This document shows positions 1 to 31,358 of a stretch of DNA of 64,000 nt, in pieces. Below the pieces are notes generated by a model that saw only the letters and a program-made list of their open reading frames with translations, ran no database searches and was not told the DNA's origin. The position numbers and the translations under genes are program-made. Position 1 is the stretch's first letter, and every line of letters begins with the position of its first letter. This DNA is from Chloroflexota bacterium (GTDB lineage Bacteria > Chloroflexota > Dehalococcoidia > Lucifugimonadales > Australimonadaceae): positions 93,957 to 157,956 of the forward strand of contig VXQP01000078.1 in NCBI GenBank assembly GCA_009838965.1. The letters run 5' to 3'.

Positions 1-48
1 GGACTGCCCCGAAGACGGCGGCAGTACGAGTCAGGCATCGCATCGTCC

Positions 49-726
49 CTAGGACTCCTGCCTGCCGACGGTCACGTCCAGCACTTCGTGCCCCGCTTCT
101 TCCATCAGTGCGCGGATATGGTGCTCGGTCTGCTCGTATCTGCCCTCGCCGAAGTGCGTGAAGCGGATGACGCCGTTCGCGTCGACCAGGTACTTCGCGG
201 GCCAGAAGCGGTTGTTGTAGGAGCGCCACGTACGGTAATCGTTGTCCTGCGCGATGGGCCAGACCACACCCAGCTGGGCCGCTGCTTCGATCACGTTGGC
301 GGTGACCTTGTCAACGTCGAACTCCGGCGTGTGCACGCCAACGATCGTGAAGCCGTCTCCGGCGTATTTCTCGTTCCAGTCCTTCAAGTACGGCACGGTA
401 CGTCTGCAGTTGATTCAGATGTAGGTCCAGAAGTCGATCAGCACCACCTTCCCGCGCATCTCCTCCATCGTCAGCGGCTCGCTGTTGAGCCACTGCGTGA
501 TGCCCGTGAACTCGGAGGCGCTGTCGCCGACCTTGCCGCCGGTGTTTCCCGACGCGCCGAACGCAGGCAACCCCGGCGTGGGAGGCGGCACAGGTGTCGG
601 CGTAGCCGTCGGGACCGGCATGAGCGTGGGGGTGGCGGTAGGAGCGGGCTCGGACGAGCACGCCACGGCGAGGCACGCAATGACGAGCGCACCAGGGATG
701 GCGGTATGCAGGCGCGGTGTCCGCAT
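49..726 (-). CDS. Thioredoxin-fold redoxin lipoprotein (DipZ C-terminal-like); candidate selenoprotein with in-frame TGA (415-417) at the first Cys of CxxC
   Basis: Track ORFs 415..759 and 49..396 share one frame and are separated only by TGA. The joined product aligns gap-free to paralog 734..2047 (LIDFWTYI-[TGA]-INCRRTVPYLKDWNEKY vs LIDFWTYT-C-VNCIRTMPFLRDWNEKY). Lipobox LAVAC plus Pro/Thr linker. ATG 724-726 preferred over TTG 757-759. Confidence 0.6.
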
Positions 727-733
727 CACTTCT

Positions 734-2047
734 CTAGTAGACCTCGTTGTAAGAGCCAAAGGTGAGCGCGAAGAGCGCGAAGTGCGGGGAGTTCGACGAG
801 AACTTCAGCTCGGCGTCTCCAAACTCGGGCAAGGATACGACGTTGTACAGGTCCGGCTCATCCACCACGAAGTAGCTGCGTCCGCCCTCGATGACGATGT
901 GCTCGCCCGCTTCGTCCGCGGTGAGCGGCCGGTAGGCGACCTCCGCTCCCCGCTCCGCGTCCGCAGGCAGGCTCTCGGCGATCGTAACCTCCACCTCGAA
1001 CGGCTCCACGCCTTCTTCCAAGTCGACGACGATGTTGACGGAGCGGGCGAAGAAGCGCAGCGCGATGTAGTCCTCGTAGTTCTCGGTCTCTCTCCCGTGG
1101 GTTATCGCCTCCAGATCGGAGCGCCAGGAGCCGTGCAGGTACATGAACTGGTTCAGGTGGTTGCCGGGGTCGCGGTAGACCTGGATCAGGCCCTGCGCGT
1201 CGTAGTACTGCGGGTGCGCGATGTACAGCCCGTTGGTGGATGCATTGCGCTGCCAGCCGCCGTATATCTCGCGCGTCTGGGAATCGTTGTTCTCGCGAGA
1301 CGTGCCGCGCGCCCGCGGGTCGTGCATCGGCTCCGGACCTGAGCCAACCTCGATATCCGACACGTCGCTGCCCGCCTCTTCCAGCAGGGCGCGGATGTGG
1401 TGCTCCGTCTCGTCGTACGCGCCCTCGCCGAAGTGCGTGTAGCGCACGACGCCGTTGGCGTCTATCAGGTACTTCGCAGGCCAGAAGCGGTTGTTGTAGG
1501 AACGCCATGTGCGGAAGTTGTTGTCCTGCGCGACAGGCCAGACGACGCCCAGCTCCTCGTTGGCGGCGGCCACGTTCTCCGTGATCTTCTCGAAGTCGAA
1601 CTCCGGCGTGTGCACGCCGATCATCGTCAGTCCGCGGTCCGCGTATTTCTCGTTCCAGTCGCGCAGGAAGGGCATAGTGCGGATGCAGTTGACGCAGGTG
1701 TACGTCCAGAAGTCGATGAGGACCACGTCTCCGCGCAGGCCCTCCATCGTCAGTTCGTCGCTGTTGAGCCACTGGTTGATGCCGGAGAACTCCGGCGCGT
1801 TGTCGCCGACCGCACCGCCTGTGCTCCCTGACGCCCTGAAGTCCGGCATCATGGGCGTGGGCTCTGCCACGGCGTCGGATGCCGTGGCGTCGGATGTCAC
1901 GCGGGGAACAGTGTCCGTCGCCACGGGAGATGCGGCAGGCTCCTCTGTGGACAGTTCCTCGTCACCGTTGCACCCGGCCACGAGGGCAAGCAGTGCAATG
2001 AGTAGCACGCCCAGGGAAATGTGGACAATCGAACGCCGACCTGTCAT
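734..2047 (-). CDS. DipZ-like extracytoplasmic thioredoxin-fold lipoprotein with an extra C-terminal domain of about 200 aa
   Basis: CVNC redox motif (FWTYTCVNCIRTMPFL) and the blocks GVHTPEF, WPAKYLID, HFGEG. Lipobox LVAGC. GGAGGAGGG SD 7 nt upstream of ATG 2045-2047. Confidence 0.8.
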   Translation of the reverse strand: MTGRRSIVHISLGVLLIALLALVAGCNGDEELSTEEPAASPVATDTVPRVTSDATASDAVAEPTPMMPDFRASGSTGGAVGDNAPEFSGINQWLNSDELTMEGLRGDVVLIDFWTYTCVNCIRTMPFLRDWNEKYADRGLTMIGVHTPEFDFEKITENVAAANEELGVVWPVAQDNNFRTWRSYNNRFWPAKYLIDANGVVRYTHFGEGAYDETEHHIRALLEEAGSDVSDIEVGSGPEPMHDPRARGTSRENNDSQTREIYGGWQRNASTNGLYIAHPQYYDAQGLIQVYRDPGNHLNQFMYLHGSWRSDLEAITHGRETENYEDYIALRFFARSVNIVVDLEEGVEPFEVEVTIAESLPADAERGAEVAYRPLTADEAGEHIVIEGGRSYFVVDEPDLYNVVSLPEFGDAELKFSSNSPHFALFALTFGSYNEVY

Positions 2048-2181
2048 GCGGCACCCTCCTCCCCGAATGCCCATGCCTACCGCATGGCGCTCTTCATACT
2101 ATTATCTACGCAGGCGCACTGTCAGTGGTTCTGCCGTTATACTTACCGGACGCACTTCCTCCCGGAGTCTGCCCTTCCACC

Positions 2182-4573: not shown

Positions 4574-6004
4574 ATGGCAGAGCACGACCACCATCACAGA
4601 CACGAGCACGGGCACGGCGGCCACGAGTCGCACACGCACCATGGCCACGACCATGGGCACGCGCATCAGGAGCACGCCCACGCTCACCCGCGAACCGCCG
4701 ACATGCTCAGCGTCGAGGACGCTCTCGAGCGCGTGCTGCACCTCGTACACGAACTGCCGGTCGAACGTGTCCCGATCCTCGAGGCCGACGGCCTCACACT
4801 CGCGGAGGACGTTCACTCGCCGTTTGACATCCCTGCGCTGACCAACTCGGCGATGGACGGCTACGCCGTGCGCGCCGCGGACGTTGTCGGAGCGTCGGAG
4901 TCGTCCCCGGTCACGCTGGAGATCGTCGGACAGGTGCAGGCGGGGCAGCTCCCCTCCGCAACCGTGCGCGAGGGCGAGACCGTCCGCATCATGACCGGCG
5001 CGCCGACACCCGAGGGCGCGGACGCCATCGTCCCCTACGAGTTCACGGACGAGGTGGAGCGGCGCTCCACCGGCCTCGCGCTGCGGTACATCGGCATCCG
5101 CCACGCACCGCACGTCGGCGACCACATGCGCCCTGCGGGAGAGGACGCCGCGAAGGGCGCGCTGATCCTGGAGAAAGGGCGCGTCCTCGACCCGCCCGCC
5201 ATCGGCCTCCTCGCTTCGTTCGGGTTCGCCGACGCCCCCGTGGTGCGCAGGCCGCGCGTCGCGGTGCTCGCGACAGGAGACGAGGTACAGACGCCCGGCG
5301 AAGCGCTCGAGCCCGGACGGCTGTTCGACAGCAACAGCTACGGGACGGCGACCGCCCTGCGGCGCTGGGGCGCAGAGCCCGTGCTGCTCGGCATCGCCCG
5401 CGACAACATGGACGACCTGCGCGCGAAGATCCGGCGGGGGCTCGAAGCCGACCTGCTCATCACGAGCGCAGGAGTGAGCGCAGGCGCGTTCGACATGGTG
5501 AAAGAGACGCTCGCGGAGCTGGGCAGCATCGACTTCTGGTCCGTGCGGATGCGTCCGGCCCGTCCCATCGCATTCGGGCTGCTGCGCACGCCGGACGGAC
5601 GCGAAGTGCCGCACCTCGGACTGCCGGGCAATCCGGTCAGTGCGCTCGTGGCGCTCGTGGAACTGGGCAGGCCCGCGCTCGCGAAGATGATGGGACGCGA
5701 ACCGGAGCCACTCCCCACGGTGCACGCCACGATGGACGACGACCTCTTGAACACAGACGAGCGCCGCGTGTACGCTCGCGTGACGCTCGAACGCCGCACG
5801 GACGGACTGCATGCGCGCCTCACCGGCGGGCAGGGCTCCAATCTGCTCACCTCGATGGGTCTCGCGCAGGGGCTGGCCATCTGTCCGGAGGACATGCCTC
5901 TGCGCCGCGCAGGCGAACGCGCGCCCGTGCAACTGCTGGACTGGCTAGACCACTCAGGCATCCTCACGGAACGGCTCGACATCACGGAACACCACATCGA
6001 CTGA
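4574..6004 (+). CDS. moeA: Molybdopterin molybdenumtransferase MoeA with His-rich N-terminal extension
   Basis: MoeA-like core from MLSVEDALERVL onward (SAMDGYAV, TGAP, SGGVS-like ITSAGVSAG). The 43-aa N-terminus has 18 His. Start could instead be ATG 4703. Confidence 0.85.
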   Translation: MAEHDHHHRHEHGHGGHESHTHHGHDHGHAHQEHAHAHPRTADMLSVEDALERVLHLVHELPVERVPILEADGLTLAEDVHSPFDIPALTNSAMDGYAVRAADVVGASESSPVTLEIVGQVQAGQLPSATVREGETVRIMTGAPTPEGADAIVPYEFTDEVERRSTGLALRYIGIRHAPHVGDHMRPAGEDAAKGALILEKGRVLDPPAIGLLASFGFADAPVVRRPRVAVLATGDEVQTPGEALEPGRLFDSNSYGTATALRRWGAEPVLLGIARDNMDDLRAKIRRGLEADLLITSAGVSAGAFDMVKETLAELGSIDFWSVRMRPARPIAFGLLRTPDGREVPHLGLPGNPVSALVALVELGRPALAKMMGREPEPLPTVHATMDDDLLNTDERRVYARVTLERRTDGLHARLTGGQGSNLLTSMGLAQGLAICPEDMPLRRAGERAPVQLLDWLDHSGILTERLDITEHHID

Positions 6005-6016
6005 GAGGCAACCTGC

Positions 6017-6439
6017 ATGACGACGAAGGCTCCCGCTGAAGCCACTTCCCAAGAGAACGACGAGAACCCCAGCTACACCTTCAACCCCGACCTGATCACG
6101 AGGCAGGGGCGCTCCGTTGGCGTCGTGCTGGGAGCACGGCTGTGCGAAGCAGCAAAGGCCAAGGCCAAGGGCAACCCGAGCGACCTCAGCTACAAGGAGT
6201 TGCACACGCTCTTCAGGGTTTGCGCGGGACAGGAGGGCTATCTCTCACCGCAGCACCCCGTACTGGAGACGGTGGTGCGGATACTGCTCGCCACACCGGA
6301 AGACGCGCTACCCCTGTCGGAGATATACGAACAGGTTTCCAACCTGTGGCTCACGTCTGCGTGGTCGCCGTCCCTCAACATCGGCGCGATGCGCCGTCTC
6401 CTCGACCACGCCGAGACCCAGGGCATCACCCGCGCATAG
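6017..6439 (+). CDS. Hypothetical protein (140 aa)
   Basis: Intact ORF with GAGAGG SD-like element upstream of the ATG. No family recognised. Confidence 0.45.
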   Translation: MTTKAPAEATSQENDENPSYTFNPDLITRQGRSVGVVLGARLCEAAKAKAKGNPSDLSYKELHTLFRVCAGQEGYLSPQHPVLETVVRILLATPEDALPLSEIYEQVSNLWLTSAWSPSLNIGAMRRLLDHAETQGITRA

Positions 6440-6525
6440 CCAGTACCCGCACACGACTTCCCTTAAGCGACAGGGCGCTCGAGTGAGCGCCCTGTTCTCG
6501 TGGATGGTGAGCGAAGGGAAGAGGG

Positions 6526-6888
6526 TCAGGCAGCGGCGAGCTGGGCCTTGGCCTGTTCCGCGAGTTGGCCGAACGCATCGGGGTCCGCCATCGCCAGGTC
6601 AGCGAGCACCTTGCGGTCCAACTCCACGTTCGCAAGCTTCAACCCGTGGATGAACTGCGAGTAGGAGACTCCGTGCTCGCGGGCAGCGGCCCCGATCCGC
6701 ACGACCCACAGCCTGCGCATGTCGCCCTTCAGTTCGCGGCGGTGCGCGTAGGAGTAGGCCAGGGCGTGCAGCATGGACTCATGCGCACGACGGTAGAGGG
6801 AGTGCTTCGTGCCCCGGTGTCCCTTGGTAAACCGGAGCACCTTCTTGTGTCTTCGGTGCGCGGTTACCCCGCGCTTCACGCGTGCCAT
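6526..6888 (-). CDS. rplT: 50S ribosomal protein L20
   Basis: MARVKRGVTAHRRHKKVL... is a typical L20 sequence. Confidence 0.97.
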   Translation of the reverse strand: MARVKRGVTAHRRHKKVLRFTKGHRGTKHSLYRRAHESMLHALAYSYAHRRELKGDMRRLWVVRIGAAAREHGVSYSQFIHGLKLANVELDRKVLADLAMADPDAFGQLAEQAKAQLAAA

Positions 6889-9339: not shown

Positions 9340-9759
9340 ATGGGAACACGCCTGCTCGCCCTCTACCTGATGCTGACGGGCCTCGCGGTCGCCGTCTACT
9401 TCATCGCCGTCTCGTGGCAGTACCCGGGCGCGGACCAGCCGTACCCCGTCGAGCCATACCCCGTCTGGGAGGTGCTGCACTGGTTCATGGCCGTAGCCAT
9501 CCTCATCGCGCTGCTCAGCGTGTTCGCCGTCAAACTGAGGCTCGGACCAGGGGAGGCAGTCCGGGAGCACCTCTCCGTCAATGCACTCTTCTACGCACTG
9601 CTCGGACTGGGGCTGCTCTTCTTCCGCAGCTGGCCTTCTCTGCTCAGGGGCGGCGACTATGACCTGTTCGTCTGGGGCTCAATCAACATGGTCCTGCCGG
9701 TGGTCCTCGCCGCCGTTGGTATGCGGCTGTGGCGGGGAAGCCGCACGAAGGAGCACTGA
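9340..9759 (+). CDS. Small integral membrane protein, subtype A (copy 2)
   Basis: 139 aa. Shares LYLML.GLAVAV.FIAV.W, WEVL.WFMA, SVNA.FY and LFF blocks with copy 1. Confidence 0.7.
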   Translation: MGTRLLALYLMLTGLAVAVYFIAVSWQYPGADQPYPVEPYPVWEVLHWFMAVAILIALLSVFAVKLRLGPGEAVREHLSVNALFYALLGLGLLFFRSWPSLLRGGDYDLFVWGSINMVLPVVLAAVGMRLWRGSRTKEH

Positions 9760-9762
9760 TCG

Positions 9763-10176
9763 ATGCGGCTACTCATCAGACTGCTCGCCGCATACAACAT
9801 GCTCGTGGCGCTTGCCGTCACCGTGAAGTCGGTGTTCGATGTGCCGCAGCCGGACTGGGAGCTCCTCAGTTGGCTGATGGCCCCGGCCGTCGTCATCTCG
9901 CTGGCAGCCGCCTACTGGTTCAAGCGTCGGTCCGACGCCGACGGCCGGAGCGCGGAAGACACGCTGCGCTTCCTGGATGTCAACGTCCACTTCTTCGCCG
10001 CGGCCGTCCTCTTCGTCGGCTACGGGTTCCAGTGGTCCGCATACCTCAACGACCTCGCATGGGGCAGGTCGGGACTCTCCAACACAGGCTCCCTGTGGAT
10101 ATACGTCGACACGCTCGTCATCATGGTCGCCGCGGTGATGGGCGTACGGATGTGGAAGGCTGCAGGGAAGACGTAG
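9763..10176 (+). CDS. Small integral membrane protein, subtype B (copy 2)
   Basis: 137 aa. GAAGGAG SD lies inside the end of the preceding gene, with a 3-nt gap. Shares LL.AY..LVAL.V.VK, RFLDVNV.F.AA, FQWS and GVRMW blocks with B copy 1. Confidence 0.7.
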   Translation: MRLLIRLLAAYNMLVALAVTVKSVFDVPQPDWELLSWLMAPAVVISLAAAYWFKRRSDADGRSAEDTLRFLDVNVHFFAAAVLFVGYGFQWSAYLNDLAWGRSGLSNTGSLWIYVDTLVIMVAAVMGVRMWKAAGKT

Positions 10177-31238: not shown

Positions 31239-31358
31239 AGCTTGGTGGTTTGAGCGGGGCGGACCCACCCGTACCCATCCCGAACACGGAAGTGAAACGC
31301 TCCAGCGCCGACGATACTGGCAGGGCAACTTGCTGGGAAAATAGGTCACCGCCAGGCT
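31239..31358 (+). rRNA. rrf: 5S ribosomal RNA
   Basis: AGCUUGGUGG...CCCACCCGUACCCAUCCCGAACACGGAAGUGAAACGC..AGCGCCGACGAUACUG...GGGAAAAUAGGUCACCGCCAGGCU. Closely parallels E. coli 5S. The terminal helix pairs 31239-31248 with 31349-31358. Confidence 0.93.

Follow-up and report, generated by a model that had tools for sequence, protein, structure and literature searches.

On the minus strand of the 64-kb stretch of DNA analysed here (the window), positions 726 to 49 are best read as a single gene encoding a membrane-anchored, extracytoplasmic enzyme of 225 residues, a thiol-disulfide oxidoreductase of the DipZ-C-terminal/TlpA/ResA type in which the attacking residue would be a selenocysteine (Sec) specified by an in-frame UGA (U104-I-N-C107). 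We give this reading a probability of about 0.85. The complete selenoprotein gene (49..726, minus strand) comprises 225 codons from ATG 726-724 to TAG 51-49, and translation of the frame reveals one internal TGA only, at 417-415, in the context D-F-W-T-Y-I-TGA-I-N-C-R-R-T-V-P-Y-L-K. A sequence-only reading of this DNA had reported the TGA with the same peptide around it and had assigned the open reading frames on either side (415..759 and 49..396) to one frame, and re-reading of the minus strand gave the same result on both counts. Public gene calls present the locus as two fragments of 103 and 115 aa in every assembly inspected, and the 15 full-length orthologues described below (L001-L015) share the layout of the window gene.

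The UGA codon (415..417, minus strand), the candidate for U104, occupies the nucleophilic first position of the U-I-N-C motif, and the resolving Cys107 of this UxxC motif (TGC at 406..408, minus strand) is invariant across all orthologues. Directly upstream lies a tandem Cys paralogue (734..2047, minus strand, within the open reading frame 2074..734), which encodes a 437-aa lipoprotein with Pfam Redoxin and PF17991 (Thioredoxin_10) domains and the motif C-V-N-C at 1696-1685. The two proteins had been described as matching residue for residue; they are 66% identical over 204 residues and their domain aligns without gaps, with Cys for the stop, and the TGA falls, as claimed, on the first, nucleophilic Cys of the paralogue's C-V-N-C. 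The Cys paralogue (TGC) is found directly upstream of the Sec gene, in tandem, in 15 of 15 related loci, and the codon equivalent to the TGA is TGC or TGT in each of 26 more distant homologues from Dehalococcoidia. Alternation between TGA and TGC at this codon, a pattern that the sequence-only reading had proposed looking for, was therefore found, with TGA in 16 orthologues and TGC or TGT in the paralogues and the distant homologues. The apparent operon includes a third lipoprotein gene, which starts at ATG 43-41 and runs past the window edge (1..43, minus strand); its full copy in a related locus (L164, 10354-11256) encodes a lipobox and an F-C-T-T-A-T-C motif, and its Pfam matches are limited to sub-threshold ones with the YtkA-like and Redoxin families (E about 0.06).

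A thioredoxin-fold Redoxin/AhpC-TSA domain covers residues 65-196 of the product (139..534, minus strand), with the TGA (residue 104) inside it. The 225-aa sequence matches Pfam PF08534 with 45.1 bits and PF00578 with 45.9 bits, both above the gathering scores. The best match among solved structures is the C-terminal domain of M. tuberculosis DipZ (2HYX, E = 1e-48, residues 69-211); the alignment crosses the TGA and places U104 on the DipZ active-site Cys, the DipZ motif FWAYSCINCQRAIPH being aligned to FWTYIUINCRRTVPY. None of the NCBIfam equivalog or subfamily models (ResA, TlpA, DsbE, StoA) scored above cut-off, the best being ResA NF002854 with 69.2 bits against 170, and there was no match to the selenoprotein-specific NCBIfam models, for which the ResA-like WAxxUGC family gave 21 bits against a cut-off of 300. 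Since every named NCBIfam model stays below cut-off, the assignment is made at the family level only, and by this measure the predicted protein is a TlpA/ResA/DipZ-type oxidoreductase and no ResA or TlpA orthologue. The Pfam analysis found no PF17991 ('Thioredoxin like C-terminal domain') in the Sec gene, where 29 residues follow the Redoxin domain before the end.

The N-terminus carries a putative lipoprotein signal peptide (658..726, minus strand) consisting of residues 1-22, MRTPRLHTAIPGALVIACLAVA, ahead of the lipobox Cys23 (660-658), and a Pro/Thr-rich linker follows. The earlier proposal that the product is a lipoprotein agrees with this predicted N-terminus, MRTPRLHTAIPGALVIACLAVA-C23, which fits a lipobox, the call being a pattern match only (the lipobox pattern [LVI][ASTVI][GAS]-C on the translation); an [AV]-A-C lipobox with Cys23 is kept in 15 of 15 orthologues.

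The orthologue set comes from one scan of species-representative genomes, which gave 15 full-length sequences with 72-91% amino-acid identity. All are from Dehalococcoidia/SAR202 MAGs belonging to separate GTDB species, and several are sponge-derived. Aplysina aerophoba is one of the sponge hosts, and among the genomes with the orthologue are the complete chromosomes OZ242210.1, OZ220673.1, OZ244813.1, OZ242348.1 and OY764542.1. The TGA is found at the identical codon in 16 of 16 species (the window and the 15 orthologues), and in all 16 the frame is intact and closes with a terminal TAG, so that the frame decay in close relatives that had been named as a warning sign was looked for and is absent. 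The same window sequence, including the TGA, is present in three further independent assemblies. The 121 codons that follow the TGA have a mean pairwise dN/dS of 0.18, against 0.17 in the domain before it, in line with the earlier statement that conservation continues undiminished downstream. Since the TGA is conserved, recurs in independent assemblies and is followed by codons with a dN/dS of 0.18, assembly error is excluded. The TGA triplet is the terminator of 20 of the 61 likely genes in the window, about a third of them, which rules out a genome-wide reassignment. The remaining coding-like in-frame TGA junctions in the window were considered as further selenoprotein genes and rejected, since each reflects either neighbouring genes that start separately or an antisense frame. 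The candidate that the sequence-only reading had put forward, a selenocysteine (UxxC) redoxin lipoprotein, is thus supported by the conserved TGA, by purifying selection and by the Cys/Sec alternation, and we regard it as very probable.

The same active-site context with a TGA recurs outside the SAR202 clade. A DNA-pattern scan of metagenomes for D-F-W-T-Y-x-TGA-x-N-C gave at least 120 matches. Among the matches listed, 104 of the 106 relatives with enough sequence show no further stop for 80 codons or more after the TGA, and many of these listed relatives have about 448 codons after it. A 7-bp hairpin with an AGUU loop is present at +22 to +39 in 81 of 120 of the matches listed, with the consensus YUCCCGC-AGUU-GCGGGAR starting 21 nt past the UGA; in this set, compensatory changes were seen in six of the seven pairs, and the observed covariation was reached by none of 500 shuffles. 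At one metagenomic locus unrelated to the SAR202 clade (L159), a SelD homologue is encoded about 4.6 kb from the TGA gene. Because of the alternation, the open frames, the covarying AGUU hairpin and the one nearby SelD, we conclude that the wider DFWTYxUxNC family is, judged from its sequences, a genuine family of selenoproteins whose SECIS is of the classical bacterial type. The AGUU-loop hairpin is absent from the SAR202 clade genes.

Searches for the Sec machinery in the 64-kb window found no tRNA-Sec (ARAGORN) and no SelA, SelB or SelD. The NCBIfam scan of 30 long ORFs in the window identified pheS/pheT, Der, MoaA, MoeA, YidC, PriA, PfkA, ClpB and RadA, together with LipA, MetG, FabD, RNase J, FtsK, UvrB and others. 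A 91-nt 'tRNA-Arg(cct)' called by ARAGORN at 4611-4701 was set aside as a false positive, since no Rfam tRNA model matches it and its position falls within the His-rich 5' end of a MoeA-like gene. When 167 related-locus sequences were searched with ARAGORN and tblastn, no Sec machinery was detected in the SAR202-clade loci and the sole match was the SelD in L159; the tblastn queries were approximate E. coli SelA, SelB and SelD sequences, and their results serve as leads only. In a study of sponge symbionts, SelA and SelB occur together in most symbiont bins (Slaby et al., 2017; PMC5649159), and Table S4 of that work gives a value of 1 each for COG1921 (SelA), COG3276 (SelB) and COG0709 (SelD) in bin16 (PMC5649159). 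This bin is the SAR202 MAG MPMJ, in which contig MPMJ01000019 carries the orthologue L005. The COG-table entries for SelA, SelB and SelD in a relative that carries the gene lend indirect but specific support to the Sec reading, and Chloroflexi include known Sec users.

The RNA immediately downstream of the UGA is under unusual constraint in the SAR202 clade. A 27-nt block straight after the UGA (388..414, minus strand), AUCAACUGC-nnn-CGUACCGUGCCGUAC, is a candidate Sec-insertion signal and is identical in 16 of 16 species except at codon +4. Its invariance covers the four-fold degenerate sites of CGU, ACC, GUG and CCG; in the Cys paralogue from the same genomes, five of the corresponding codons show synonymous variation. 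Only two 9-codon windows in the gene, starting at the UGA, are free of synonymous change (column shuffles, P = 0.008). The freezing of 27 nt, four-fold degenerate sites included, points to a signal at the RNA level.

Within this block lies a minimal hairpin (388..401, minus strand) formed by GUAC at 401-398, the loop CGUGCC at 397-392 and GUAC at 391-388, with GpU at loop positions 2-3 and spacers of 13 nt (UGA to stem) and 17 nt (UGA to loop). The sequence-only reading had drawn the hairpin as UCAA..GUAC[CGUGCC]GUAC..UUGA with GU in its loop, and this was located at 413-384. The lower stem UCAA/UUGA was rejected on comparison with the orthologues, in which the 3' arm becomes CUGC, GUGG, UUAC or CUCA without compensation. 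By RNAalifold, GUAC/GUAC is the sole helix kept in the stretch, with four invariant pairs and zero covariation; because these four pairs never vary, covariation neither supports nor contradicts the hairpin. For the window sequence, the energy of the core is -2.8 kcal/mol and that of the best structure with the stem enforced is -3.3 kcal/mol, while RNAfold gives -4.6 kcal/mol for a 45-nt fold and z = +0.5 against shuffles for an 81-nt fold. Neither single-sequence nor alignment folding around the UGA in the SAR202 clade detected significant structure, the folds being no better than those of shuffles. Lower-stem extensions of the GUAC hairpin vary by species, with -12.0 kcal/mol in L010 and -13.3 kcal/mol in L014, where the lower stem happens to pair, and the lower stem keeps no consistent register between species.

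The published bSECIS model specifies an apical loop of 3-9 nt and an upper stem of 4-16 bp (PMC13188914, Fig. 2 legend; a 2026 review), as well as a G in the first two loop positions, a UGA-to-loop distance of 16-37 nt and an MFE of -7.5 kcal/mol or lower (PMC13188914). The window hairpin lies within these bounds for its loop (CGUGCC, 6 nt), for its stem (GUAC/GUAC, 4 bp, the allowed minimum), for the loop G (G then U at positions 2-3) and for its spacing (17 nt from the UGA to the loop). Its energy falls short of the -7.5 kcal/mol threshold, which is passed by two of the seven sequence variants (L010 and L014). The doubt that the sequence-only reading had voiced about this hairpin as a SECIS element is shared by our analysis, in which the RNAfold result is weak and the bSECIS energy threshold is missed. 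We consider the GUAC[CGUGCC]GUAC hairpin to be the likely insertion signal of the SAR202 genes.

Two other readings of the UGA itself have to be weighed. Were the TGA a true stop, the locus would be a pseudogene, or would yield two separate products, a truncated lipoprotein of 103 aa and a cytoplasmic fragment of 115 aa that begins at GTG 396. The gene-caller annotation, the lack of Sec machinery in the window and the weakness of the local RNA structure would all agree with such a stop, yet the TGA would then interrupt the thioredoxin fold after strand beta-1 and before the active-site helix, leaving two pieces neither of which is a domain, the downstream one devoid of both a signal peptide and an active-site nucleophile. 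Given in addition that the TGA, the frame and the final TAG are kept in 16 species with a downstream dN/dS of 0.18, and that 104 of 106 metagenomic relatives, among the matches listed, continue in frame beyond the equivalent TGA, in many cases for ~448 codons, we regard a true stop as highly improbable. Translation through the UGA with a residue other than Sec is somewhat easier to accommodate, and still improbable in our view. The residue could be Cys, delivered by SelB on a tRNASec-like tRNA-Cys of the kind described in some bacteria, or Trp, Gly or Arg, delivered by a near-cognate or suppressor tRNA. The inserted residue is not readable from sequence, the conserved TGA, open frame and constrained RNA would fit SelB-dependent Cys insertion equally, and the unusual, weak hairpin would allow a non-standard mechanism. 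However, the site is the nucleophilic Cys of a CxxC motif, a known position of Sec/Cys exchange, and Trp or Gly would abolish redox function in a domain that is under strong purifying selection; moreover SelA and SelD, which are needed solely for making Sec, are reported in the genome carrying L005, and other genes of the window use TGA as a normal stop.

If Sec is inserted, the signal might be a feature other than the GUAC hairpin, such as the linear invariant sequence, a structure with a variable lower stem, or a distal GCCG-GAGA-CGGC hairpin at 363-352. That the 4-bp core has only -2.8 kcal/mol and no covariation speaks for an alternative of this kind, as do the start of the invariance right at the UGA, which extends beyond the stem alone, and a second helix found by RNAalifold further downstream, which is partly conserved and has one compensatory change. 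The distal hairpin, however, has its loop about 55 nt from the UGA, beyond the 16-37 nt of the bSECIS model, and several species cannot form its closing pair, whereas the proximal hairpin has GpU in its loop at the spacing of the model and is the only part in which all four-fold degenerate sites are frozen. A signal elsewhere seems less likely to us, and the GUAC hairpin remains the preferred element. It is possible, and we advance this tentatively, that the SAR202 element represents a minimal, newly evolved class of Sec-insertion signal, composed of the 27-nt invariant block, the 4-bp hairpin and the CGUGCC loop, which would have arisen de novo when the duplicate switched from Cys to Sec, independently of the strong AGUU-loop hairpin found in the rest of the family. 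If this were true, recognition by SelB in this lineage would depend chiefly on sequence and spacing and less on a stable stem, and the locus would be a natural snapshot of the birth of a SECIS within coding sequence.

Comparison of the domain sequences bears on the origin of the gene. Identity of the SAR202 Sec proteins is 69-76% with the Cys proteins encoded next to them in tandem and 61-66% with the other Cys forms from Dehalococcoidia, against at most 52% with any other Sec form recovered; for the window protein, it is at most 39% with the long metagenomic Sec forms. In neighbour-joining distance trees built on the 130-residue domain, the SAR202 Sec sequences form a single clade (80% bootstrap) that is placed within the Cys forms, and all Sec forms together were monophyletic in none of 200 replicates. 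The SAR202 Sec gene is probably a tandem duplicate of the neighbouring Cys gene that later underwent a Cys-to-Sec change, and Sec appears to have been gained independently in this clade. The origin would lie within a SAR202 (Dehalococcoidia) subclade that has several sponge-associated MAGs among its members, and the simplest history would involve tandem duplication, loss of PF17991, a one-base change of TGC to TGA and fixation of the new local signal.

We infer the insertion of Sec, the SelB-binding element and the substrates of the enzyme from a mechanism modelled on the established bacterial Sec pathway. By this analogy, SelB with Sec-tRNASec and GTP would bind an mRNA signal in the 27 nt past the UGA, most likely at the small GUAC[CGUGCC]GUAC hairpin with its GpU loop, and would deliver Sec as the UGA enters the A site, after which a further 121 codons would be translated up to the TAG. 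The product would be exported and lipidated at Cys23, and its extracellular selenenylsulfide/selenol-thiol couple would reduce disulfides of partner proteins, candidates for which are assembly factors of cytochromes or copper centres, or oxidised envelope proteins.

Selenoproteins of the UxxC redoxin/thiol-disulfide oxidoreductase type have been catalogued since 2004-2008 from genomes and marine metagenomes, and the catalogued families include a 'Redoxin family protein' (PF08534) and a 'Prx-like thiol:disulfide oxidoreductase' (PF00578). The SAR202 proteins share with them the Pfam domains, a predicted Sec at the first position of UxxC and widespread Cys homologues; compared by domain and motif, they differ in being lipoproteins and in being confined to a SAR202 subclade. 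Relative to Sec-containing relatives, the SAR202 hairpin is much weaker and nearer to the UGA. With the C-terminal domain of M. tuberculosis DipZ (2HYX, 5CYY) they have in common an extracytoplasmic reductase module and an aligned active-site motif, but DipZ has Cys, a fused CcdA-like membrane domain and PF17991, whereas the Sec gene is without both domains and its Cys paralogue keeps PF17991. The metagenomic selenoproteins with DFWTY[C/G]U[I/V]NC have the same active-site context and TGA position, but are mostly about 500 aa long, with an extended C-terminal region after the Trx-like domain. NHL-type repeats in these long forms are indicated by sub-threshold NCBIfam matches only, in one representative; the Cys-type proteins NHLRC2 (6GC1) and SOQ1 (7DJJ), which combine a Trx-like domain with NHL repeats, are among the PDB matches of the window protein. 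Compared with the metagenomic forms, the SAR202 clade has either lost the strong, covarying AGUU hairpin or never had one. The SECIS of E. coli fdhF resembles the SAR202 candidate in being a hairpin immediately 3' of the UGA, within the coding sequence, whose apical loop contains GpU; in fdhF this comes about 19-20 nt after the UGA. The fdhF element is, however, far longer and more stable and has a bulged U, whereas the SAR202 candidate has 4 conserved bp and -3 to -5 kcal/mol in the window.

Literature searches found no description of a SAR202 or DipZ-type selenoprotein. We therefore consider it very probable that the SAR202 gene, as predicted here, is a new and so far unannotated addition to the known UxxC redoxin selenoproteins. 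It is modestly unusual among them in its lipoprotein form, in the conserved Cys/Sec tandem, in the apparently independent origin of its Sec and in its minimal SECIS candidate. A SECIS-first predictor with an energy cut-off would miss the gene, which is recovered by a search for Cys/Sec pairs combined with conservation at synonymous sites, and at least 120 metagenomic relatives are likely to be mis-split in annotation as well.

SAR202 bacteria are abundant in the oceans worldwide and include sponge symbionts, and the corrected annotation returns an exported redox enzyme to their gene set. The tandem pair, kept together in at least 16 species, allows a clean natural comparison of a Cys enzyme with the Sec enzyme derived from it, and the locus appears to record an independent switch from Cys to Sec accompanied by a new, unusually small insertion signal.

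Genes encoding DFWTY[C/G]U[I/V]NC, with an in-frame TGA at the U position, are very numerous and environmentally widespread. A scan of metagenomic DNA for this pattern identified at least 120 loci (L044-L163) in soil, sediment and marine samples, a count that is a lower bound since further such genes exist. Among the matches listed, most encode proteins of approximately 500 aa, with some 448 codons lying 3' of the selenocysteine (Sec) position. Most also have a covarying hairpin, YUCCCGC-AGUU-GCGGGAR, 21 nt downstream of the UGA. At one of these loci, L159, a SelD homologue is encoded on the minus strand (5739-6668), approximately 4.6 kb from the Sec-redoxin gene and with 45% identity to E. 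coli SelD, and a fragment of a SelB-like GTPase (25-204) is found at the contig end.

Within the Sec gene of the window, the sequence GCCG-GAGA-CGGC (352-363, minus strand) can form another small hairpin, whose loop is of the GNRA type. It lies approximately 52 nt downstream of the UGA, which is beyond the usual distance for a SECIS, the RNA hairpin that directs Sec insertion. The rare glycine codon GGA is used within this hairpin in 13 of 15 species, and its closing pair is disrupted in several species.

One Cys-containing protein, P0004 (157 aa), is similar to the long Cys paralogue over its N-terminal two-thirds (CINC, RTMPYLRDWNEKYADRGLTM), while its C-terminal end agrees with the Sec orthologues (YEQTEHHIRALMAEAGYEVPDVTIGREES). 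P0004 is either an assembly chimera or the outcome of recombination between the two tandem genes.

Elsewhere in the window, two small membrane-protein genes that are tandem paralogues (9340-9759 and 9763-10176, plus strand) share a frame and are separated only by a TGA and one codon. Because both possess a start of their own, they were read as separate genes and not as a candidate for TGA read-through. ARAGORN also called a 91 nt 'tRNA-Arg(cct)' on the minus strand (4611-4701). This is almost certainly a false positive, because no Rfam tRNA model matches it and it falls inside a MoeA/Glp-like gene (4574-6004), at the His-rich 5' end. A solitary 5S rRNA gene (31241-31357, plus strand, 89.6 bits) appears to be unlinked from other rRNA genes, since neither 16S nor 23S rRNA was detected within the whole 64-kb window.

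Only 5 nt separate the Sec gene from the start of a third lipoprotein gene, which continues past the window edge (1-43, minus strand). The gene is likewise found downstream at L001, a locus with a Sec orthologue, and its full length is contained in the sequence L164 (10354-11256). Its product carries a lipobox and an F-C-T-T-A-T-C motif, and Pfam searches returned only sub-threshold matches, with E = 0.061 for YtkA-like and E = 0.068 for Redoxin. This third lipoprotein may act together with the Sec and the Cys redoxins, as a partner in redox reactions or in copper handling.
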